Positions 1,889 through 20,084 of a stretch of 20,085 nucleotides of DNA are shown here, one piece after another. The notes below the pieces were generated by a model, which was not told the DNA's origin, ran no database searches, and saw only the letters and a program-made list of their open reading frames with translations. The stretch is from a bacterium. GTDB lineage: Bacteria > SAR324 > NAC60-12. Within the stretch, counting starts at the first letter, position 1. Every line of letters begins with the position of its first letter. The position numbers and the translations under genes are program-made. The stretch spans positions 1 through 20,085 of the forward strand of contig CBDDTI010000242.1 of assembly GCA_965233585.1 (NCBI GenBank). Reading direction: 5' to 3'.

Positions 1889-4358
1889 AACTATTTTTTA
1901 AATAGCATACTATACTGGTTTGGAATCTTCTTAGAATTATTGTCAACATGCTTGGTGCAGAGGTGTGCCAAGCCTCCAAAGTTTTCTGTCGATGACACAA
2001 CAACTATCAAAATCTATGCAACGGCCGAATGACCACGCATTTTTCGCAATGTTTGATCCATTAACAAATGTTTTGACATTCCTGATATGTTCCTTCCTTC
2101 AAGTTTTCCTTGGAAAAAAATTTTCTATTCGGCACTCCAGTACATGCTACCCATGTCTTTCTCCTCAGATGTCATTTTTTTTTATATCTGTCCTTAATTT
2201 CGCAGCAAGCAAAGGTTAGTCCTGACTGAATAGGTGTGATAAGTCTTGATCGTAAACGGACATATCACTGCTTCAAGCAGCTAACAGCAAACAATGGAAA
2301 AAATGCATTCGAGAAAAAAAATCAGTTATTTACATACGCACTTTCACTGGGCCCGCTCAAATGAGAATCTGTTACAAGCCGTGACGATTGAAGTTAAAAC
2401 CGTACTCCTAAACGGTAGCCTATTATATAAATTTCTGACTTCATTGTTTTCCAAGTCCAAAGAAGCACAAGCAGAGATGCTTTAACAGGCCTCGACACCC
2501 TCGAAATAAAATTGCCGCCAAACTTTTACCAAAATACAATACATGCAGTAAGACGCAATTCCATGCAGTGTTTTATAGTACATTGTCTTTACATGACCTG
2601 TCACGTTAATTCTACTAAACATAACTTTAAAGTAAGGCAGTACAATAAGCTTCTGACAAAAAGTCCCGTTCATCTTTAATCGCCGTGGCCATATCTTAAG
2701 AAAAAACAATCTCCAAAAGCTGATCGTCTCACGCACAGGCAATTTCCTTTTTTTGTGGAGCAATTTTCTAACCACTGCCATTCTCGATCTTGTTATTGGC
2801 TATTCAGCAAGAATATCACATGTGGACACCCTCTATTTTATTCCAGTTCTGATTAACTAATGAATAAAAAGCAAAATTTCACTGCTGTACCTATAGCGAC
2901 CCTTTAGCCAGAGCGGTCGAGATTCTTGGGGCTGACCCTTCAGAACGCGACCTGCCAGCGTGCAAAAACACAAACAAGAAGAATACTAGCTAATAGTGGC
3001 TGATGGATTAAATTCAGTGATCGCGCTTGTTAAACTTGGGGTGTTTAACTAATTGGCTATTTTTTTCTGTCGGTGATCTAGAGAAACCGGATGTTTAAAT
3101 CGAGAGCCAGGAAACACTTTTCCTGCTTTTTGTTCCCAACTGAACTTCTTTCTCCACAGGTCTGGCGTTTGCTGTATTTTTTTGACGGCTGCCTTAGGCC
3201 TCAAAAATATACACATCAAAGAAAGTGCTTTTCTGATAGGGCTCTCGGCGTAGGACGAAAGAGATCAGACAAAAAGATGAAATTCTAGAACGACTTCGGC
3301 TTTTATTTAAATTGAATTTTTATATATATATTAATTATTCATTTCTTTCCGTTGCCGCTTTCTGTGGCATAATCCTTCAGACCGCCGAGTAATGCAATAT
3401 AAAGTATATGATATCTCTTTGTGGTGCTATTCCGTTAAACGGAGAGAATCCAGAAGTTGTAATTTTTATCTGTAGTCTCTACGAACGTAGCTCGATCCTC
3501 TCAGTTAGAACACTGATCTGCTCGTTTTTGTTTTAGAACACTGCTTGTCGAATTTAATTTTGCAATTAAAGGAGGGATAAAAAAAAAATTTTGTATCCAT
3601 ACAAGCGTTTAATCGAAGTTTGAACTCGATTCTCTACGAAAAAGTCAAGAATTTCACGAGAATCAATCATAAACTCAATAAACTGACCAGCTGGTAGGCG
3701 GCTTATTGACTTGTTGAATGAATTTGCAGAATTAATATTCATTCAGTATTATAGCCAGACATTTGTCGAAATGATCGTGAACAAACATTACACCTGACCT
3801 AAAAGCTATTAACTATGACAAGTGTGGTTGGTATAAGTAAGATCTCTTGCTCGCGCTCGCTCGATCGATGAAACAATCATTCCGATATATAATTATATAA
3901 TGTGGTAAACCTCTTACCAAAAGAAACAACCCTAATAAGAATAGATATAGTCCTGTTTAAAACAATTTATGTAAGCTTTTCCCATACAGTAGCCAATAAA
4001 ACGTGGACAAAATGTTCCATGATTACCTTCCAAACCATAGCCTATCAACTAAGGAAAATTGACGAAAAACGCCACACATATTTGTGTACACAATATCTGT
4101 CATACGTAATAATCCTTCTAAGTACCAATAAATATAACAAAGCTAAGCCTTCAGGTCCTTTAATATGCTTGTACATTTGTTTAAAACGAACAAGATCCTT
4201 TGCATTGATGACCGTTAACGTTAATTCAGTCTTAATGAAAAGCACATATCAGGTAAAGTGTCTGCATTCATTTCATGTCGCGATAGATGACATAGGGATG
4301 TCTGTTTATGGCATTTGGTCCCATCCCTCCCCTCGCCCCCATTTCCCTTTTTCTTCAG

Positions 4359-4482
4359 CTGCTATCAGCTTGCTACGCTTCTGTCGTGTTGTTGGGTATG
4401 TTTATATTTTTCCTCTTTCCTGTTTGCTGCGTTTATTTTACTGCTTGAAGTTCAATCGTATTTTATCTCGTGGAATAATCAG
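4359..4482 (+). pseudogene. Paralog of exon 430-552 with a +1 insertion (124 nt)
   Basis: Same acceptor TTCTTCAG| and donor CAG|GTGAGC. GGGTATG replaces GGGATG and shifts the frame. The 3' part reads CLYFSSFLFAAFILLLEVQSYFISWNNQ. Confidence 0.5.
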
Positions 4483-4938
4483 GTGAGCATGATATTTCTT
4501 TATTGACATCACAAGCAAATGCTGAAGTACAGAAAACTTTCTGAATTAAATTGAAGAAACGTAAGTGGAAGTCTAGGAAAGCAAGAAATGTTATGGGAAC
4601 AAGAAGTAGTAAGCGACTGTTTCAACAATTTTTCCGCTTCTCCCAAACTTGGACGAGTTATAGAAACAGCATTTATAGTTCGTGTTCTTTTTTAGCATTT
4701 CTTAGGTATCTACTTACCCGATTATAGAATTAACAGTCACCTTGAAGTGGATCATTTATCTGCGTCGAAATTCTCTGTAAAGCTAAACATGGCAACGGAA
4801 AAAATTGAAAAGAAAAGTTTTTAATAACAAAGGCACGAAACCTTTGTAATTTCAAGGTTTTAAAGGGATATTGTCGGCCGGCTGATTATGGAAAGTATTT
4901 TTTTCCTAATTTTCCGCTGCAAATGTCACCAAATATAC

Positions 4939-6769
4939 CAAGAGAAAATGAGGGGACAGAGAGGGAGGCTCCCAGTCCAGGCCTTGGGATATGTCAATTC
5001 CACTAAAGTTATTTTAGGGTTGCCGGAAACAGCGGGAGTGCATTTCCTGTTACGTCCGCATCATTACATTCTTAGGTGATCACGCAATTTAGAAACGGCG
5101 GTCCACGGGCAAATACGTCGATGGAAGCGTCTTTCACAGGTATATTAGAGAGGAATAGTATTTCTGAATGGATAAATGAAAGAGGGATATATATTTTCAC
5201 AACTTGATGGAAATAAAATGGCACATCATTGCAGACGGGCGGAAATGCAGTTCTGAGTGGTCAACAAAAACAACAAAATGTTCCGGCTGGACGTGTTATA
5301 AAGGTCGTGTCGGCTAGGCTATCATGGACTATGCCCTGTGGCTTTTTTAAATGGAGTTTACGAGCCCATGGACTTGGACATTAATATTGGCAAGGACAAC
5401 GAGATTTTCTCCTCACGAAAGCTTACATTAGTGTAAATTAGCGAAAGGTGCAGACTGACGTGGCATGAACATGATCAATGGAAGATGACACCTCCGTCTT
5501 GGCCGGTTTCGTCTGTTAGAAAAGCAGTCAGAAGAACTGAGTTATCCCTTTCGCTCAGTTCAGTGTACTTTGGTTGATGGTTTAAAATAATTTTTTGTCG
5601 CTTACATGGGAGTTATTTTGTCGTTGAATTGAAAGTTCAGTCAACGTTGTTCTGTGTTTCTGTGAATTCAAAATTAGGAACGAAGTTGAATTCCCGGCGT
5701 TGAATTATTTCTGCACGGGTTTCAGTGTCGCTCAGATTGCTTCACTCAAGCTACAGGAGTTGTTTTGTCGCCGTAACAGTATTCACGACTAGTTCAGTTT
5801 TTACGTTCCCATGATCGCCATGCTTCTAGTTGTTGAGTCGCTGTGCGGGCATTCAATTTTTTTTTTCTCTTGCTAAACGCTACTCTACAAGCCTGACCCT
5901 CGAGAGTGTTTGTTATTGTATTCAAAATTATTTCTGTCACTGGTCGTCCCACTTCGAGCTGTTTTAAATATATTTCTCTCGCTGGTCGCTTCGCTGTGAG
6001 CCATTTTGTCACTCTACTGCCATTCAACATTATTTCTCTTGTTGATCACCTCGCTCCGAGCTGTTATTTGGTTGAGTTATTTTCTAGGCTGATCGCTACA
6101 CTCCGAGTTGTTTTATTCGCGCCCTTAAGACTCAAAATAAAATTTCTTTGGGTGAAAATTGCTTTGTTGAGGTGCAGTATTCAAATTGGTTTCTGTCGCT
6201 AATCGCTAGGCTTCGAGTTGTTTTGGTTCCTGGATTCAAAACATTTTAGCTACCCTCCGAATTGTTTTGCCGTTCGACCAGAATTACTCCTCTATCCGGG
6301 TTGAGAGCAATTTTGTCCGCGCTGGGTTCAAAAATAGTTTTTTCCGTGGGAACCAAAGTAGTTTTCTTCGCTGTGCTAAAATTTCTTTCCTCGATGCGTT
6401 CAGTGGTATCAGGAACGCTACAGATTGAAACAGTATTTCATGTTATGTTACAACATCGAACAATACGATACTTCTCTGCATGTTGTCTACAAATGAAAGC
6501 AGATTAATTCTTTGTTGTTGTCATCGCTGTTTTCTTTGGTTCAAATTCTCAGAGGATAAACATTGATATTCCTTCATGCCGAAACGTATTTCCACGCTGA
6601 CCGCCTTTTCAATTAGCTTCAATTCCCAGATCAACGAGTGAAAGGTATCATGCGGACGTCTGGGGAAATAGACTTCCGTTTCCGCCTAAAACTAAAAATA
6701 ACTTTAGTGGAATCGACATATCCCAGCCAACGCCCTGAATGTCCCTCTCTGTCCCCTCATTTTCTCTTG
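4939..6769. mobile_element. Complete non-autonomous TIR DNA transposon (1,831 bp), probably P/Galileo superfamily
   Basis: Perfect 28-bp TIRs CAAGAGAAAATGAGGGGACAGAGAGGGA (4939-4966 and 6742-6769), with imperfect inverted repeat extending ~130 bp. 7-bp TSD AATATAC at 4932-4938 and 6770-6776. CA..TG ends. Empty site at ~1016-1030 in copy A. No transposase ORF. Confidence 0.9.
5605..6320 (+). repeat. Degenerate internal repeat array inside the transposon
   Basis: About ten or more same-orientation variants of (TCGCTACACTC)CGAGTTGTTTT, often followed by TTCAAAATTATTTCT, e.g. at ~5955, 6057, 6103, 6214 and 6258. Confidence 0.7.
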
Positions 6770-8909: not shown

Positions 8910-9073
8910 CTATAGGTGATTCCTCAGAAATAAAATTTATCGATTTTCCACGATTTTCGCGTGATTAGCGCGCGCAAATAAGCGCGTGCACATAGACAAC
9001 GAAAGAAATTTCGCTCAAGCTAAGCTCGATACCGAAATAAATGTTCTTTTTCTTTTAAACGAGCATGATGACC
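8910..9073. mobile_element. Left part of a host interspersed repeat split by the Polinton insertion
   Basis: Ends ...AAACGAGCATGATGACC and appears to resume as GTGACCGAAACCTAAATTAGCC at 11718. Continuity is inferred from the TSD-like duplication and my recall of the repeat family. Confidence 0.5.
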
Positions 9074-9345
9074 AGTAGTTGTGTGGGCCCCTTCTTCGCC
9101 TAGGTCGCGCTCTGATTGGTTGTTTGAGCCCTAATTCTTATGCAAATAAACCAAGATGGCGGCCGGTGTAGTGATACATATCCAAGATGGCGACCCCTAA
9201 CCGTAATGACGTCGTCAACCCTAATTAACATATCCATCATGACGTCCTCGTCATCCCTGAACCCTAGTCCCCCTTTGATCCCTAAGACGTCATCCCCTAG
9301 TCTCTCTTTGACCCTCTAATTAACATATTTTTCATGGTGCCCTAA
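9074..9345 (+). promoter_or_regulatory. Polinton terminal region with clustered host transcription-factor motifs
   Basis: CTGATTGGTT (inverted CCAAT, 9112), ATGCAAAT octamer (9140-9147), CAAGATGGCG YY1-type x2 (9152, 9183), TGACGTC/GACGTCA CRE-like x3 (9207, 9240, 9286), CTAATTAACATA x2, and repeated CCCTAA/CCCTAG. Confidence 0.6.
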
Positions 9346-9677
9346 GAAGGACCTATTTACTAATCAACTTAATGACATGCTCTTATATTTGGATCATGAC
9401 ATGTTTACTTATCCCTGTGGGAACACTTACTCTGTCACTTTAGTCACTACGCATCCTGGTAAACAATATGGTCAAGATTTGTTTATATATGAGTCACGAA
9501 AAGTCCTTCGACCCATGTGGGAGATGGTACTCTGTCACTTGACGCAGTGCGCAGTATGAGAAGCACGAATTTTATAGATTTGTTGTCGGAAAGGGTGAAA
9601 ATTTGTTACTTATTGGTTAAGTAATCGTGCCTTTACATATGGTAAATGAGGGTTGTGGGAGTCAGTACAAAAAATAC

Positions 9678-9720
9678 TGTTCTGGTCAGGAATCGAACCT
9701 GTAAGCATTTAGCTTCTTAA
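9678..9720 (-). pseudogene. 3' half of a tRNA gene (5' half missing)
   Basis: Minus strand reads TTAAGAA GCTAA ATGCTT ACAGG TTCGATT CCTGA CCAGAAC A, then GTATTTTTT. This gives a perfect B-box/T-arm, a 7-nt acceptor 3' strand and a Pol III terminator. Confidence 0.65.
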
Positions 9721-9734
9721 TTTAAAGCTATTTT

Positions 9735-9807
9735 GACTGGATAGCGCAGCGGTCAGCGTATTGGGCTCATAACCCAAAGGTCCACGGTTCAAATCCTTGT
9801 CCCGTTC
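9735..9807 (+). tRNA. trnM: tRNA-Met (CAT), initiator-like anticodon stem, slightly decayed
   Basis: GACTGGA TA GCGC AGCGGTCA GCGT A TTGGG CTCATAA CCCAA AGGTC CACGG TTCAAAT CCTTG TCCCGTT C forms a full cloverleaf with one mismatch each in the acceptor and T stems. Anticodon at 9768-9770; followed by a TTTT terminator. Confidence 0.85.
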
Positions 9808-9875
9808 ATTTTATTTATTTATTTTTTTTTTACAAAGCTATTAGATTGTATTCAATTAAGTAGTTATCAATTTTA

Positions 9876-10120
9876 TTACGTGATATTACACGTTGGTTTT
9901 CTAGTTTGACCTGAGGCTTTGACCCATTCGTTAAAGCTTTTACTGCCTCCGTTTGATTTGTATTTTGATAGTTTGCTTTCAAGTTGGCGTAACGTTTTTC
10001 CCTTTATGATCTTGACCTTTGAAATCTCAGAGAGTTTTCTTAGCGATGCCTTTAGTAACTTCGATTCCTTATACCTTTATTTTCAACGCTGCGTGTTTGC
10101 TGCGTGAAACTTGCTAGCAT
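9876..10120 (-). pseudogene. Remnant of a small Lys-rich Polinton ORF
   Basis: Open stretch RYKESKLLKASLRKLSEISKVKIIKGKTLRQLESKLSKYKSNGGSKSFNEWVKASGQTRKPTCNIT* whose stop overlaps AATAAA. The nearest ATG (10120) is out of frame. Confidence 0.4.
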
Positions 10121-10192
10121 TTTTAAACCCACTAAAAGGTAAAGTGAAACAACACATTGTAGTAAACTTTTTTTATTTATTTTCAAAACAAA

Positions 10193-10451
10193 TTACAACT
10201 TCATGCGTTTCTTGGCTTGCATGATTTTACGAATGGCGCGTTCGGTCATGGTATTGCTGCCAGGTAAATTGTTGATTGCTTTTATCATTTTATTGTCAGC
10301 TTTCCATTTGTCACGCAAGTTCCGAGCGACGGAATAGTCCATGTCGTGCTACTTGGTGATGCGGTCGAGTCGATCCTCGGGCCAGTCGCTTCTTCAACTT
10401 GGTACCAGGCCCCAAGTATTGGTAACCAGGCACGTGATATTCGATTCGCAT
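10193..10451 (-). pseudogene. Parvovirus-type phospholipase A2 (adintovirus PLA2X-like), disrupted; not in the supplied ORF track
   Basis: MRIEYHVPGYQYLGPGTKLKKRLARG / frameshifting deletion / RLDRITK*HDMDYSVARNLRDKWKADNKMIKAINNLPGSNTMTERAIRKIMQAKKRMKL*. Shows the Ca-binding YLGPG loop, the catalytic HDxxY and the downstream AD. AATAAA follows the stop. Confidence 0.9.
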
Positions 10452-10523
10452 GTCACTGCATTCACTAACACCGCAGGCTCAGAACAGCTACGTTCAAAAA
10501 CGTTGTAAGTTCGTCCAAATTCT

Positions 10524-11058
10524 TTACAGGCGGAACGTGTGCGGTTCCTTAGTGGGAGAACGCCCATAAACATTTTTTTCACAATATACGTGAATCATTA
10601 TTGAGTGCGTTGAGGGAGAAAAAGAGAGCAATGTCCAACAAGGTTTGTGCGCTACTAATTGAAATACATTAAGTGGAAATGCAAATCTAAACTCATTGAT
10701 CTTGACTGTTCCCTTGAGAAAAGCATCATTCAAAAGAATCTTAAACAAACAAAAGACATTTTAAGCCACCGTTGAAGAATCAACATAGTAAGTCAGAGAT
10801 GAAACCTGAAATGAATTAAAACCGAGCGCATGCTTAGAAGCTAAACATAACATCTAAGGTATTTCAAACAAACGTTCGCGCTTGAAGTAAAGATCAAACA
10901 AACATTGCAAATCGCATCGCTTCTGATTCAACAGCCGCACAAATTATAGTTCGGTCTAAGCGGTTTTCTAACAGTGGCAAGAATAATTCACTCACATCAA
11001 CCATAGTCGTTTCAAATTCCTTTAAAGCGATGCTCAGCTCTTGATCACTTAGTTCCAT
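10524..11058 (-). pseudogene. Decayed Polinton ORF of unknown function (~175 codons)
   Basis: MELSDQELSIALKEFETTMVDVSELFLPLLENRLDR... joins, via one frameshift and two in-frame stops, the track ORF ending ...FKILLNDAFLKGTVKINEFRFAFPLNVFQ...PHTFRL*. Confidence 0.5.
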
Positions 11059-11167
11059 AATCGCCAAGACAAGAGTCCAAAAACGTGTTTCCAACCTCGT
11101 CACAAGTAAAATGATTTTGCTCAAGTCTGAAAGACTTGTATGTAAAAACGTGTATCCAATAAGGACC

Positions 11168-11717
11168 ATGAGTAAAACAGGTCTTTTTGGTTTTCCCTTG
11201 GAAGAAAACTATAATGAAAACGTAGAAGAGAAAGAGGAGGAAAGTAGTAGCTCCGAAGAGGAACCTGAACAGGAGAAGGAAGAAGAGACTAGCAGCTCCG
11301 AAGAAGAACAAGAAATGGACGACGATGAACCAGATCCATGGAAGCCATTACGTGAAAAAGTCGGGGAAGATCTGGAAGAATATCCTACCTGAAAGAAGTT
11401 CAACAGTTCCTGGATAAGGGAAAAACCCAAGATTATGCCCAGATAGCCCTTTCAATGCCCTATTACCTGTAACTAGAAGAAGGCTACGAAGGATTTACCT
11501 GGAGCGGCTAAAATGGACTCACCGTATCAAACACGACGTAATACACCGTAAAGTCATGAAAACTCTTCGACGCTTTATTGAGGAAGATGATATGGATTTT
11601 GACGAGGCTGCTGAGTCAGCAGTGGCAAAACGGAAATTCCTGATAAACAGAGTCATGAAAAAGAAACCACTCCCCAATGAGTCCGATGACGACAAAGAAG
11701 AAGATAATGATATCTTA
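11168..11717 (+). pseudogene. Decayed acidic/helical ORF resembling an uncharacterised family seen in invertebrate Polintons
   Basis: MSKTGLFGFPLEEN..(E/S-rich)..DEPDPWKPLREKVGEDLEE / YLKEVQQFLDKGKTQDYAQIA / FNALLPVTRRRLRRIYLERLKWTHRIKHDVIHRKVMKTLRRFIEEDDMDFDEAAESAVAKRKFLINRVMKKK. Two frameshifts (~11385, ~11449); cut by the right junction. Confidence 0.7.
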
Positions 11718-11857
11718 GTGACCGAAACCTAAATTAGCCACGTGAATCTTATAAGAATTTGATTTAGCGAGATGGACATGAAACAAAAGCCTCGTTTCAC
11801 GCGCAGCGAAACGAACTTTTTTGGTCAAAAATAACATGTATTCTATTTGCATATCAA
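11718..11857. mobile_element. Right part of the host repeat split by the Polinton; truncated at the genome-type junction
   Basis: GTGACCGAAACCTAAATTAGCCACG...TATTCTATTTGCATATCA, then an abrupt change in sequence character. Confidence 0.5.
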
Positions 11858-15889: not shown

Positions 15890-18371
15890 CTAGATTAGAT
15901 TGGGATAAAGCGCCATCATGCGCATCTTCAGATATTCTCTGTACATTTGTTCTGGAAACAATCTAACTTCCCTAATGCACTGAGCTCTCAAACGTTGACC
16001 TTCAGGTAAGTGATTCTCCAACACATCCAAGTCGTTCCAATCGACACCAATAGCAAAAATTTCAGGCAAAGTGCTCGGGCCTGGACAACGGAGATCCAGG
16101 AAGGCCCACATGCTCCCTTGAAATTGATGTTGAAGGTTCACGTTGAAATCCACCTGTTGGCATAGCACCGGACACAGTTGATGCAACTGCAGGTGCAGGG
16201 GTAGTAGCCACAACTGGTTCTGGTGTGTCCATTTCCATCGGATCATGCTCTCTTGGTTCTTCTTCTCCTTCATCACTCAAACCAACCATGCTCATCTCCA
16301 AAGTCTCGAGTTTTTCCACACCACGTTTCCTTTTCACCATTCTGGATGGGCGAACATGGCGTGACAATCCAAATGGAGTCTCACGGAAATATTCCTCACC
16401 AGAGTCTGCATCCTCAGTTTTTGTCAAGACTCGGTACTGCCGCACGCTATAAGTTTCAAGGTCCCAGTCATCCACATACTGGATGTCCTTCTGGGTCAAC
16501 TGAGTTTGCTCGGCCGTCCAACGCCGAATCTTTGATATCTTCTCGTTCTCTTCTCGACCAGTTTGTTGAAAAAGTAGCTAATGAAGAAACCGACAATGAG
16601 GAAAAACACCGCATACGAAATCATGAAGAAACGCCTGTGGACAAAGAGGTCATGAACCAAAATCATGTTATACTGCACCTCGTCACCAGAAAAGCCAGCT
16701 GCCAACGGCTGCAAAGCCGAAATGGCCAATGCCTTCAAAGGAGGCTTTGAAAGCTGTGTATGCGTGTTCTCTGCTCCTTCGCTCAAAGTTCCACAGGCAA
16801 TCCTTTGAACCATCTTCATACTCTGTCCCATAGCTTTCTTTCGAAGATGTTCATGCCTGCAAGAAACATGAGGAAGGCTCTCCTCGCCTTATTCAATTTC
16901 TTGGTTCCAAGATCGGACATGTTGAACAAAGTGCTCACACTGTCCATAGGCACCATGCTGTTCTTGATCATCAGTTGCAACCAAAGAAACTTGGTGTCCA
17001 CATGCTTAAGCTTTCCGACGCCCAATCTCTGAGCGAATGCTCTGCAAGAGCTAGAGTCAGTGACCAGTCGTGTCTTGACCTGCTTCTTCAACTCCAAAGT
17101 CGGCTGATGTAGATTCCTTCAGCAGCTCCTCCAACTGCTGCAAAATATTCACTTTCGCAGGAACTCAAAGCAATCGATTTCTGTGTCCTCGACCACGATG
17201 TGACTGGGCGACCATTGGGAAAAATCATTGCCCAATCCGAATCAATGAAGATTTCCACACAACCTTCTGCATCTTCAACTTTTCAGCCATAGATGGAATC
17301 CAACTTCGTTCCAGCCACCTTGTAAGGAAGAATCAGTGCAAAGGTTCGTGTTCCAGCAAGATACATGATGAGATGTCGAACTCGGGCACAAGCAAGTCTT
17401 GTTGGGCGAGACATGAACTGAGCAAGATGTCTTACTGTGCTGGGTATCCCATCGATCAGCAGATAAGCACGGCAAAGTTCCCATAGCTGATCTGAAACGG
17501 TGGGCTTCATAACTGAAAGTTCTCCATCTTCTCCATTCCACTGAGCCATATCTGGTGTGGCCTTTGGTTTATATGCACCAAGGTCGTAGAGCTTCACCAA
17601 CTCATCAACATACCTCTCATGTGGAGCGATCAGCACACCATTGGTTGTGAAGTAGCAGCGCTTCTTCAAGAAACGCACTGGTTCTCGAGGATCTTGGTGT
17701 GGACTGGGAACAACATCCCCGCTTGAAATAGTGAATCTTTTCTCTATCTCTCCAACCAACCAAACAAGTTCTCCTCCTCCACAAAGGATGAGATCATCCA
17801 CATGGGAACACATCACCAGGCTCTTGGTTTTGTGTCGAAACAAGTTTGGCAGCAAAGGAGTGCTCTCGAAACCAAGATCTTTCATGTGCTCTGTCAGGAA
17901 GTCAAAGACATGGGCGGCAGCGTTAAGCTGGCCGGGAAGGCACCTTTGAAGAATCCAAAACCCATCAACTCCTGGAACGTGATCTTCGGGTTTCCACCAC
18001 TGCGGAACTGTCACAAAAACGCATTCACGCCGAGGGACAAGGAGTAAGACATCTTTGATGTCCACAGAAGAGAGACATCAGCCGTAGATCATGTGCAGCA
18101 ACACCACCAATCGGCTTCCAATTCCAGCTGTTGGTGCAAAGGTCTCAGCTGTGTTCGTGGAATATCCTTTGGACTCTCGAGCAACAAATCTACACCTTTC
18201 CATCCTCCTCTGTACCGCCATCAAAAACTGACCTTGTTGGCAGCACCACACCCTTCTGCAGCTCTTCTTCTGTCTTCACAGTTCTTCAAAGCTCGCAGCG
18301 ATCTCCACTTCCTCCAATTGCTCTGCAGAAAGCTTGGGAGGTTCTCCAACTGATTCTGGCTCTTCTCGAGC
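15890..18371 (-). mobile_element. Decayed Ty1/copia retrotransposon pol fragment (RT, RNase H, long C-terminal extension)
   Basis: RT: RCRFVARE..TFAPT, DIKD, LQRCLPGQ, SHVDDL. RNase H: DSDWA..SWSRTQKSIALSSCESEY, TDSSSCRAFAQRLGVGKLKHVDTKFLWLQ, DLGTK. Multiple frameshifts, stops and deletions. No LTR identified. Confidence 0.93.
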
Positions 18372-18765
18372 TTATAGACTAACTTGAACTCCTCACATTT
18401 GCAAAAACATCCCACAAAGCAGCGTGTAGGTAAAACAAAAGCAAAACATAAAAACCCACACGAGAGTATGTGACTCTTCTGTCATCGCGAGCATCACACA
18501 CCATCTCAAACTTAAACGCTATCCTACGCACAACGAAAAACACAAACTTAAAATAAACAGCTGGCACATTCGAGAAAAACATCAATGCATCTGAAAATGG
18601 AATCGGCTCACGGTCTTTTCTCGCAACTGGCAAACATGGGGAAGTATCAAATCCTTCACGGTTGGATTTATCGTTCAATCCAAAGTTTCTGGTGCTTTCC
18701 AAAAATGCTTTGCATGAGAAGGACGCTCAAGAAAAATGCTCTGCTTCAAGCATGCAAATTTCCCC
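18372..18765 (-). repeat. 394-bp direct repeat, terminal copy (B2)
   Basis: Identical to 19269-19662 except for 3 substitutions; offset 897 bp. Confidence 0.97.
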
Positions 18766-19268: not shown

Positions 19269-19662
19269 TTATAGACTAACTTGAACTCCTCACATTTGCA
19301 AAAACATCCCACAAAGCAACGTGTAGGTAAAACAAAAGCAAAACATAAAAACCCACACGAGAGTATGTGACTCTTCTGTCATCGCGAGCATCACACACCA
19401 TCTCAAACTTAAACGCTATCCTACGCACAACGAAAAGCACAAACTTAAAATAAACAGCTGGCACATTCGAGAAAAACATCAATGCATCTGAAAATGGAAT
19501 CGGCTCACGGTCTTTTCTCGCAACTGGCAAACATGGGGAAGTATCAAATCCTTCACGGTTGGATTTATCGTTCAATCCAAAGTTTCTGGTGCTTTCCAAA
19601 AATGCTTTGCATGAGAAGGACGCTCAAGAAAAATGCTCTGCTTCAAGCATGTAAATTTCCCC
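19269..19662 (-). repeat. 394-bp direct repeat, internal copy (B1)
   Basis: Identical to 18372-18765 except for 3 substitutions; starts 8 bp after the RNase H stop codon. Confidence 0.97.
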
Positions 19663-19670
19663 TGTCTGCT

Positions 19671-20084
19671 TCAGCCAGTTACAAACGGTTCAGAGCCTTT
19701 CCAGTACTCAGTAATCGGACACCTCGGGTGTCGAACATCAAACGGCTGCATGAACTCAACTTGATCCCATCGTCCTCTGCTCGGAGGGTCAGCAACATTA
19801 CTAGGTGAGGCAACTCGTGCCATCCAAAGCAAACAGTTAAGGTTCTCATCTATTCTCTCAAGTGCCAGCAACAATCGTCTCCACCATCTAATTGGGGACG
19901 AGCTCTTGACAAAGACATCAATGGCTGTCCAGTTGTCACAAAAACAAATAACACGGCGACCAGCTATCGTCTCTTTCCAAAGGTCCAAGGCCACAACCAC
20001 CGCATACATTTCTGTCAAACCGACCGGGTGGTTAAGCTCGGTCAACCCATCCTTCAAAACATCGTCATCCACTCGGTTCCTAAA
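19671..20084 (-). CDS. C-terminal RNase H domain (DIRS1-like) of a retroelement polyprotein; 5' partial
   Basis: TEMYAVVVALDLW..GRRVICFCDNWTAID..WMARVASPSNVADPPSRG shows the E, DN and NxAD..SR catalytic motifs of DIRS1-type RNase HI. The frame is open to the window edge. Confidence 0.85.
   Translation of the reverse strand, partial: FRNRVDDDVLKDGLTELNHPVGLTEMYAVVVALDLWKETIAGRRVICFCDNWTAIDVFVKSSSPIRWWRRLLLALERIDENLNCLLWMARVASPSNVADPPSRGRWDQVEFMQPFDVRHPRCPITEYWKGSEPFVTG

Follow-up and report, generated by a model that had tools for sequence, protein, structure and literature searches.

A decayed, initiator-like tRNA-Met gene near Polinton-linked debris in coral-like DNA, and an intact homologue within a putative Polinton-like element

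The window, by which we mean the whole stretch of 20,085 nt analysed here, is an entire contig (C242) from a bin of 12.0 Mb and 747 contigs. It harbors a slightly decayed tRNA-Met(CAT) gene, abutted head to head by a tRNA-like 3' fragment on the opposite strand. About 310 nt from the tRNA-Met begins a patch of roughly 1.65 kb (10116–11761) of scrambled, Polinton-linked debris. The locus comprises the following features:

8949–9073, no strand: interspersed repeat of 125 nt, about 50 copies in the bin at 75–92% identity
9669–9732, minus strand: tRNA-like 3' fragment with a hairpin (9710–9730), a T arm, a perfect B box (9689–9699), the 3' acceptor strand and a T6 run (9669–9674)
9724–9732, plus strand: first copy of AAAGCTATT, also lying within the hairpin of the minus-strand fragment
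9735–9807, plus strand: slightly decayed tRNA-Met(CAT), found by ARAGORN and Rfam (RF00005, 54.7 bits, E = 1.6e-9)
9808–9833, plus strand: T-rich trailer, read directly from the sequence; its first T4 run starts 2 nt past the 3' end of the tRNA
9834–9842, plus strand: second copy of AAAGCTATT, directly after the trailer, of weak significance
9843–10115, no strand: single-copy spacer between tRNA and debris, from depth and with no match elsewhere in the bin
10198–10478, minus strand: broken PLA2-like ORF (parvovirus VP1 / adintovirus PLA2X type), from translation, Pfam, tblastn and depth
10637–11163, minus strand: segment A of a 3.6-kb unit, inverted and cut at 10637, by 92% nucleotide identity
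11176–11761, plus strand: segment B, an acidic-protein gene, cut and frame-broken, by 78–82% nucleotide identity and tblastn

The tRNA-Met had been described in the original prediction as complete. The gene itself is there, as both ARAGORN and Rfam report it, and its score exceeds the curated gathering score of RF00005 (29 bits). By the same measure, the host initiator reaches 58.7 bits, the host Ser tRNAs 64–67 bits and the homologue on metagenome contig L041, discussed below, 69.9 bits. Three G-C pairs make its anticodon stem initiator-like, the T loop is of the ordinary kind, and an A box and a B box can be recognized. Completeness, however, did not hold up. The cloverleaf contains non-standard pairs at 4:69 and 51:63, so that the gene lacks four intact stems, and positions 1 and 72 form a G-U wobble. 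Folded for minimum energy, the gene does not form a cloverleaf and does no better than shuffled sequences (z = -0.39); the host initiator on contig C418 folds well (z = -3.15). The T4 run in the trailer looks like a Pol III terminator and may function as one. An oligo-T run of its own had been claimed for each tRNA piece, and this proved correct, with T4 placed 2 nt past the Met gene and T6 at 9669–9674 for the fragment.

The fragment on the minus strand has no 5' part. It had been taken for a divergent 3' half tRNA, and it does possess the hairpin, T arm, B box, acceptor strand and T6 run, but ARAGORN makes no tRNA call here and Rfam none at E ≤ 10. Its resemblance to host tRNAs is confined to the generic T arm. 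The B-box consensus GGTTCRANTCC occurs twice in the whole window, both times at the tRNA locus, where 0.14 copies would be expected in the window (2 of 100 shuffles reach two). Because both copies lie here, the reported half tRNA can be accepted as a genuine fragment, though no program calls it.

The AAAGCTATT motif does indeed recur before and after the Met gene, at 9724 and 9834, as had been observed, but the resulting 9-nt flank repeat carries weak significance. The motif occurs three times in the window where 0.38 occurrences would be expected, a count that none of 100 shuffles reaches. Repeats of at least 9 nt also flank 4 of 177 host-like tRNA genes, and a length of 9 is reached in 1114 of 20000 shuffles (5.6%) of the T-rich window flanks. 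The pair is thus weak evidence for anything. Cutting out the block between the two copies restored no tRNA.

The bin from which the window comes is mixed. Five large contigs carry bacterial-style tRNAs, and the other 742 contigs are short and eukaryotic-looking (9.09 Mb, about 39% GC). Among these host-like contigs is C418, with its canonical eukaryotic initiator tRNA-Met. They account for 180 of the 217 ARAGORN tRNA calls in the bin, mostly in arrays whose units, Thr(GGT), Arg(TCT), Lys(CTT) or Ala(GGC), are near-identical. Public runs of the source organism contain 82–89% of the words sampled from 9074–10636, coral and coral-reef metagenome runs contain small shares of them, and two coral metagenome runs cover 9918–10445 at 86–93% likeness. 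The sole named relatives of a neighboring gene family come from the coral Oculina patagonica. For these reasons we treat the window as coral-like host DNA that was wrongly binned with the bacterium, not as bacterial chromosome. A host mitochondrial contig was not found in the bin, where only a bacterial COX1 was seen. The window therefore matters mainly as a warning on the bacterial genome record, which includes misbinned host DNA; by itself, it is a decayed tRNA beside dead transposon scraps.

The tRNA locus is identical in contigs from two source-organism samples. Summed contig depth is high over the tRNA body (interval 9712–9812) and its flanks are single-copy; this depth was computed from contigs only, and as the high value may reflect bacterial or organellar tRNA-Met contigs, we draw no copy number from it. 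Among the contigs listed for the two coral metagenome runs, none bridges the tRNA, and parts uncovered in these runs are uninformative. The spacer to the right of the tRNA has a summed contig depth of 9–19 in the four runs X1, X3, X5 and X6, of which X1 and X3 stem from the source organism and the remaining two are the coral metagenome runs. For 9813–10115, the value in the source organism is 9–16. The debris further to the right reaches 100–370 and more in X1 and X3.

According to the original prediction, the tRNAs lay close to the terminus of a Polinton/adintovirus-like element. The window holds no recognizable Polinton. None of its 229 stop-to-stop ORFs of at least 45 aa matches pPolB, rve, adenain or the A32-type ATPase in Pfam. 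In the bin, pPolB (PF03175) has 22 matches on 16 contigs and the rve integrase (PF00665) has 67 matches, none of them on the window contig. A tblastn search with the ORFs of local Polintons and of L041 gave no window match for capsid, adenain-like protease or packaging ATPase. As to a terminal inverted repeat or TSD, no inverted partner for 9040–9400 exists anywhere in the window. The host element proposed for the window thus has to be given up, and so does its terminus: position 9073/9074 is just the edge of the 125-nt interspersed repeat, and it is probably this right edge that had been taken for the end of an element.

What can be recognized near the tRNA is debris of three kinds. The PLA2-like ORF lies within a unit that spans about 500 nt (about 10116–10636) and is moderately repeated; the ORF is interrupted by one frameshift (near 10381–10383) and one in-frame TAG. 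Its first half matches PF08398 with E = 8.2e-4 and 20.0 bits, below the cut-off of 23.9. The remnant at 10262–10457 (minus strand) also aligns with the intact PLA2-like ORFs of three Polinton fragments (C304, C308 and C168; tblastn E from 3e-5 to 8e-4), and it is all that a tblastn search with every ORF of these fragments finds near the tRNA. Their other match in the window is a GIY-YIG-like ORF at 1894–2107. Segment A belongs to a 3.6-kb unit found on C744, C690, C587, C170 and C557, and its other copies extend past the breakpoint at 10637; the ORF at 10897–11181 on the minus strand is 82% identical to C744 2627–2920. On C744, C690 and C587, the gene of segment B comes after a gene for an A32-like packaging ATPase. 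The tRNA-Met of the window is located upstream of segment B and on the same strand.

We next looked for tRNA genes in related elements of the same host. We defined 58 Polinton-marker contigs by matches to pPolB or to PLA2-like, ATPase, capsid-like or protease sequences. These contigs make up 1.53 of the 9.09 Mb of host-like DNA (17%), so that a tRNA lying near element debris by chance would not be rare. A tRNA-Met is present on none of the 58. Other tRNA-like genes are found on two of them: three copies of Thr-GGT on C557 and six of Ala-GGC on C380. The three Thr units on C557 lie within 680 nt between the ATPase gene and B, flanked by a 14-nt direct repeat, and this block is a secondary insertion of a repeat derived from the host tRNA-Thr(GGT). 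The 4.3 kb upstream of the C557 ATPase contain no tRNA-Met. C744 and C690 run into a tandem repeat within about 400 nt, with no tRNA-Met shown. A second copy of the window tRNA-Met is likewise absent from the 12-Mb bin, including about 9 Mb of host DNA. On the host-bin evidence alone, with no tRNA-Met on any marker contig and no second copy, the original prediction would be refuted on the terms it had set itself.

The tRNA is rare in kind. Its pattern, exact or degenerate, retrieved nothing from IMG/VR; an exact 26-mer found nothing in metagenome contigs, nor did an exact 33-mer in genome contigs. A pattern scan of genome contigs gave two matches (L011 and L012), both of them other eukaryotic initiator tRNAs. 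Searching 60 relatives of the bacterium yielded bacterial tRNA-fMet genes only. Identity with initiators is similar throughout, at 54 of 75 positions for the bacterial, 50 of 73 for the host and 56 of 74 for the protist tRNA. Eukaryotic cytoplasmic initiators are marked by A1:U72, A54, A60 and an anticodon stem containing three G-C pairs. The window tRNA shares with them the three G-C pairs at the foot of this stem and a similar D arm, but it lacks the A1:U72 pair and the A54/A60 T loop of the C418 initiator. It has G1-U72 and a T54-type loop instead, and we therefore rejected the host cytoplasmic initiator as its identity. The anticodon arm is identical to that of bacterial tRNA-fMet genes and is also present in a eukaryotic initiator from another contaminated bin, so this arm is not diagnostic. 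We take it to differ from the conserved arm of the opisthokont elongator tRNA-Met, a gene that the bin lacks for this host.

A degenerate tRNA pattern scan of metagenome contigs returned two loci. One of them, L040, holds ten tRNAs in a prokaryote-style array and is unrelated. The other, L041 (OFHQ01001112.1, of which 3055 of 6790 nt or 45% were examined), carries a tRNA-Met of 73 nt with all stems intact, followed by T6. It is 89.7% identical to the window tRNA over 68 nt. Two compensatory pair changes (5:68 and 50:64) separate the two genes; with two sequences to compare, such changes carry no statistical weight, since 137 of 500 shuffles do as well.

The tRNA on L041 is on the same strand as its neighbors, which are, in order, the C-terminal part of a capsid-like ORF, an adenain-like ORF, the tRNA itself and an ATPase ORF. 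The protease ORF has a weak adenain match (Peptidase_C5, E = 0.0039, below the Pfam cut-off), and the ATPase ORF matches AAA_16 (E = 7e-4). On C744, the homologue of this ATPase matches Pox_A32 (22.8 bits), and PF04665 is present in many relatives. The L041 ATPase is 64–67% identical to the ATPases of C690, C587 and C744 and 27–38% identical to those of about 40 other ATPase-bearing contigs. The capsid-like ORF is akin to ORFs of 450 aa in the bin (E from 1e-7 to 4e-10), many of which lie on contigs with pPolB, rve or ATPase matches. For one of these 450-aa ORFs, a low-confidence AlphaFold model (pLDDT 51) found only double-jelly-roll capsids in Foldseek (E from 7e-18 to 1e-10). These belong to adomaviruses, virophages, giant viruses, one MELD virus and one adintovirus, which at a pLDDT of 51 is a hint only. 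L041 thus appears to be a Polinton-like element, with a clear ATPase family, a protease below the cut-off and a capsid suggested by BLAST links and a poor model.

Searches for further instances added no others. The ATPase alignment had no relative in IMG/VR, the single capsid relative found there has no tRNA, and a protein search with the ORF that spans the L041 tRNA gave no candidate for other contexts. The window and L041 share the tRNA alone, and a comparison of their flanks revealed no homology. Remnants of an ATPase, protease or capsid of the L041 type were not detected near the window tRNA at E ≤ 10, and the 508 nt that follow the ATPase gene of L041 yielded no homologue of segment B. 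Still, the tRNA type and the element family appear to coincide in these two unrelated sequences, because the L041 ATPase is closest to that of the C744-type unit, from which segments A and B of the window derive. It is this intact homologue, in an element of the C744-type ATPase family, that revives the original prediction. A tRNA located inside a putative Polinton-like element can be pointed to on L041, between protease and ATPase genes, but the window tRNA lies about 310 nt from the debris, across single-copy DNA.

We tentatively read the window tRNA-Met as the fossil of an element-borne tRNA-Met of the Pol III type, and would rate this reading just short of an even chance. According to this reading, an unusual tRNA-Met, with an initiator-like anticodon stem, an ordinary T loop and no A1:U72, would be cargo of one Polinton/adintovirus-like family. 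In the intact relative represented by L041, the gene would reside between the protease and packaging-ATPase genes, with internal Pol III boxes and a T-run terminator. It would be transcribed apart from the protein genes of the element and charged with methionine. We infer both the Pol III transcription and any benefit to the element. The copy in the window would have arrived with such an element, which would since have shrunk to about 1.65 kb of scrambled pieces.

Several observations favor an origin from an element. The tRNA type is rare, with no other copy in the bin and only L041 found outside; the L041 ATPase and segments A and B of the window are of the same C744-type family; and segment B, whose gene comes after the ATPase, has the tRNA upstream on its own strand. 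The reading is weakened by the missing flank homology between window and L041, by the single-copy spacer (the repeated PLA2-like unit starts only at about 10116), and by the C744-type units of the host itself, in which no tRNA-Met was seen. The high background of tRNAs and element debris in the host DNA and the dependence of the association on one outside instance, L041, weaken it as well.

This background also speaks for a more ordinary account, the main rival, which we find less likely but take seriously. The window may show a common host tRNA locus, with an eroding tRNA-Met and a truncated tRNA head to head, that came to lie near debris by chance, while L041 captured a similar host tRNA independently. 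At least one tRNA-like gene is present on 92 of the 742 host-like contigs, frequently in divergent pairs or arrays, and 17% of host-like bases are on element-marker contigs. Single-copy flanks around a tRNA body of high depth are what dispersed tRNA genes would give, and the lack of tRNA-Met in related elements of the same host fits as well. However, the gene differs from the cytoplasmic initiator of this host (50 of 73 positions identical on C418) and presumably from the opisthokont elongator in its anticodon arm. In 9 Mb of host DNA it is seen just once, and the sole other instance found sits in an element of a related family. Considerably less probable is a secondary, SINE-like or retro-copied unit, in which the 101-nt block at 9733–9833 would have inserted between AAAGCTATT target-site duplicates into an older tRNA-like sequence. 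The 9-nt direct repeat does flank this block exactly, its first copy falls within the hairpin of the truncated fragment on the minus strand, and an active family derived from tRNA-Thr(GGT) inserts into such units in this host (C557, 680 nt, 14-nt repeat). But the block has neither a tRNA-unrelated body nor an A-rich tail (read on the gene strand, the tail is T-rich), the bin contains it just once, excision restores no tRNA, and the 9-mer is weakly significant (4 of 177 controls, 5.6% of shuffles).

The preferred reading has the window copy as a fossil, not a working module, because two base pairs have been lost. The original suggestion was that of a functional Pol III module belonging to a resident provirus, serving in translational support, as a decoy like VA RNA or as a tDNA insulator. 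The gene does retain its A and B boxes and its terminator, and the locus is identical in contigs from two source-organism samples. We consider it very improbable, since there is no provirus to serve and the neighboring element genes are all broken or missing. The fold of the tRNA with its two broken pairs is no better than that of shuffles, and as ATG is the sole Met codon, compensation of codon usage does not apply to a tRNA-Met. None of the proposed roles finds support in this decayed copy. Also very improbable is a tRNA-fMet of organellar or bacterial type that came to be copied into the nucleus, whether NUMT-like or by horizontal acquisition. The anticodon arm, variable loop and T loop do match bacterial tRNA-fMet over 36–65 nt at 80–92% in 27 of the 60 relatives searched, and depth confined to the tRNA body could stem from organellar or bacterial tRNAs. 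However, the same anticodon arm is present in the eukaryotic cytoplasmic initiators L011 and L012, overall identity is no higher to bacterial (54/75) than to host (50/73) or protist (56/74) initiators in any marked way, and the D stem is presumably not of the bacterial initiator type. The flanks give no mitochondrial gene, protein or rRNA signal, and the L041 homologue has a T-run terminator of eukaryotic style inside a eukaryotic virus-like element.

Beyond the window itself, it is possible, though we hold it to be somewhat less likely than not to be so, that a coral-associated animal lineage of Polinton/adintovirus-like elements encodes a non-canonical, initiator-like Pol III tRNA-Met between protease and packaging ATPase, of which the window keeps a fossil. 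Since methionine has a single codon, such a tRNA would have a role other than codon compensation, for example in sustaining Met-tRNA supply or initiation when the host restricts tRNAs. If the link holds, animal Polintons and adintoviruses would join phages, giant viruses, virophages and protist PLVs as tRNA carriers. The function of such tRNAs would also become testable in a new setting, with a cargo tRNA-Met that cannot be explained by codon-usage matching. Taken together, the features first described were confirmed in part, and their interpretation as an element-borne tRNA is partly supported.

Among known systems, tRNA-derived SINEs likewise combine a tRNA-like Pol III unit with short direct repeats, and the same host has a prolific family derived from tRNA-Thr(GGT). 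The window unit differs in lacking a body and a tail and in being the sole copy within 12 Mb. We rejected membership in this class, as there is no body, no further copy with shared flanks, and a 9-nt repeat of weak significance. Adenovirus VA RNAs come from a virus of the wider adenovirus/Polinton lineage and are transcribed by Pol III from an internal A box and B box; they are not tRNAs and act by binding PKR. The window sequence instead reads as a plain cloverleaf tRNA, and any likeness would lie in the Pol III boxes and the viral lineage.

That tRNA genes are not a described feature of Polintons, as had been stated, is accurate for animal Polintons in so far as our literature search found no paper describing them (bioRxiv supplements and the figures of PMC8502044 were outside its scope), but tRNAs are reported in PLVs and virophages (PMC12220804) and flagged in MELD viruses (PMC8502044). 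With tRNAs in polinton-like viruses already in print, the novelty is modest. Adintoviruses and MELD viruses appear to resemble the present case in a PLA2-like gene of the VP1 type, a module of capsid, adenain and ATPase, and tRNAs in some MELD genomes. The parvovirus-VP1-type PLA2 domain of adintoviruses was named PLA2X by Starrett et al. (PMC8502044, section 3.2), and the legend of their Fig. 6 marks tRNA genes as predicted for MELD viruses whose replicases are of non-PolB type; the text of that paper describes no tRNA for animal adintoviruses. For PLVs and virophages, PMC12220804 gives 558 tRNAs in about 8300 genomes, and its Table S12 includes tRNA-Met in elements of Polarella glacialis. 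As appears to be so on L041, the tRNA is in these cases carried within a small eukaryotic dsDNA element with a double-jelly-roll capsid, a protease and an ATPase. The elements covered there are those of protists, whereas here we are dealing with coral-like animal DNA and an initiator-like tRNA-Met, whose copy in the window would be a fossil outside an intact element.

The genome bin from which the window comes (GCA_965233585.1) is a mixture of bacterial and eukaryote-like, coral-like DNA. The coral-like share amounts to 742 short contigs with a combined length of about 9.1 Mb, and the GC content of the bacterium is similar to theirs. The marker-based contamination figure of 2.09% does not reveal the mixture. 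The terminal ~36 kb of contig C745 (585000-620666) contain no ORF of at least 150 aa and harbor two copies of the host 125-nt repeat, while the rest of this contig is gene-dense and bacterial. C745 is probably chimeric, with bacterial sequence joined to host DNA.

Polinton-like elements are plentiful in the host-like part of the bin (58 contigs, e.g. C304, C164, C401, C435 and C212). Their ORFs encode pPolB, an rve integrase, an ATPase, a capsid-like protein of 450 aa and a PLA2-like protein; on C308, the integrase is fused with a PLA2-like domain. In the 3.6-kb unit typified by C744, the ZnF-ATPase gene is immediately preceded by a tandem repeat with a 20/31/51-nt period (C744, 1-268; C663, 17945-18677), and assemblies break at this repeat.

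The window itself carries further repeats and transposon scraps, as follows.

1-713 and 3915-4636: direct repeats of ~700 nt, about 90% identical and 3.9 kb apart
4939-5015 and 6695-6769: 28-31-nt repeats in inverted orientation, 97-100% complementary, spaced 1.7-1.8 kb
18372-18671 and 19269-19568: direct repeat of 300 nt, 99% identical, 897 nt apart
1894-2107, minus strand: transposon scrap
17283-18077, minus strand: transposon scrap
19671-20084, minus strand: transposon scrap

The arrangement of the ~700-nt direct repeats is LTR-like, and the inverted-repeat pair may represent a foldback element or a small DNA transposon. The scraps comprise a GIY-YIG-like ORF (1894-2107) that also occurs on C308 (E 2e-15), a weak copia-type RT match and a weak RT-RNase H match.

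Left of the tRNA-Met(CAT) gene (9735-9807, plus strand) and the adjoining tRNA-like fragment (9669-9732, minus strand), promoter-like motifs are densely clustered between 9100 and 9320: an inverted CCAAT, ATGCAAAT, two copies of AAGATGGCG and several TGACGTC-like sites. The same region contains a 95-nt tandem duplication and, at a read depth of 100-500, is moderately repetitive. A high-depth contig from one coral-metagenome run joins position 9553 to 9670, skipping 116 nt; in another coral, a single repeat family may therefore include both the tRNA-like fragment and what lies to the left of 9553.

A degenerate tRNA pattern scan also retrieved a 2-kb metagenome contig (JACCDR010670815.1) with ten consecutive tRNA genes at 632-2060, an unrelated array. 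CCA is encoded in its first two genes, the two that were read, and the array looks prokaryote- or phage-style.

Near-identical tRNA-like units are highly abundant in the host-like contigs of the bin, where they form arrays and inverted pairs (for example C557, 5770-6450; C182, C740, C4 and C380). The types comprise Thr-GGT (17+9+8... copies), Arg-TCT, Lys-CTT and Ala-GGC. The Thr-GGT units have a downstream body in common, and those on C557 lie within an insertion bordered by a 14-nt direct repeat. These Thr-GGT units look like a tRNA-derived, SINE-like family.
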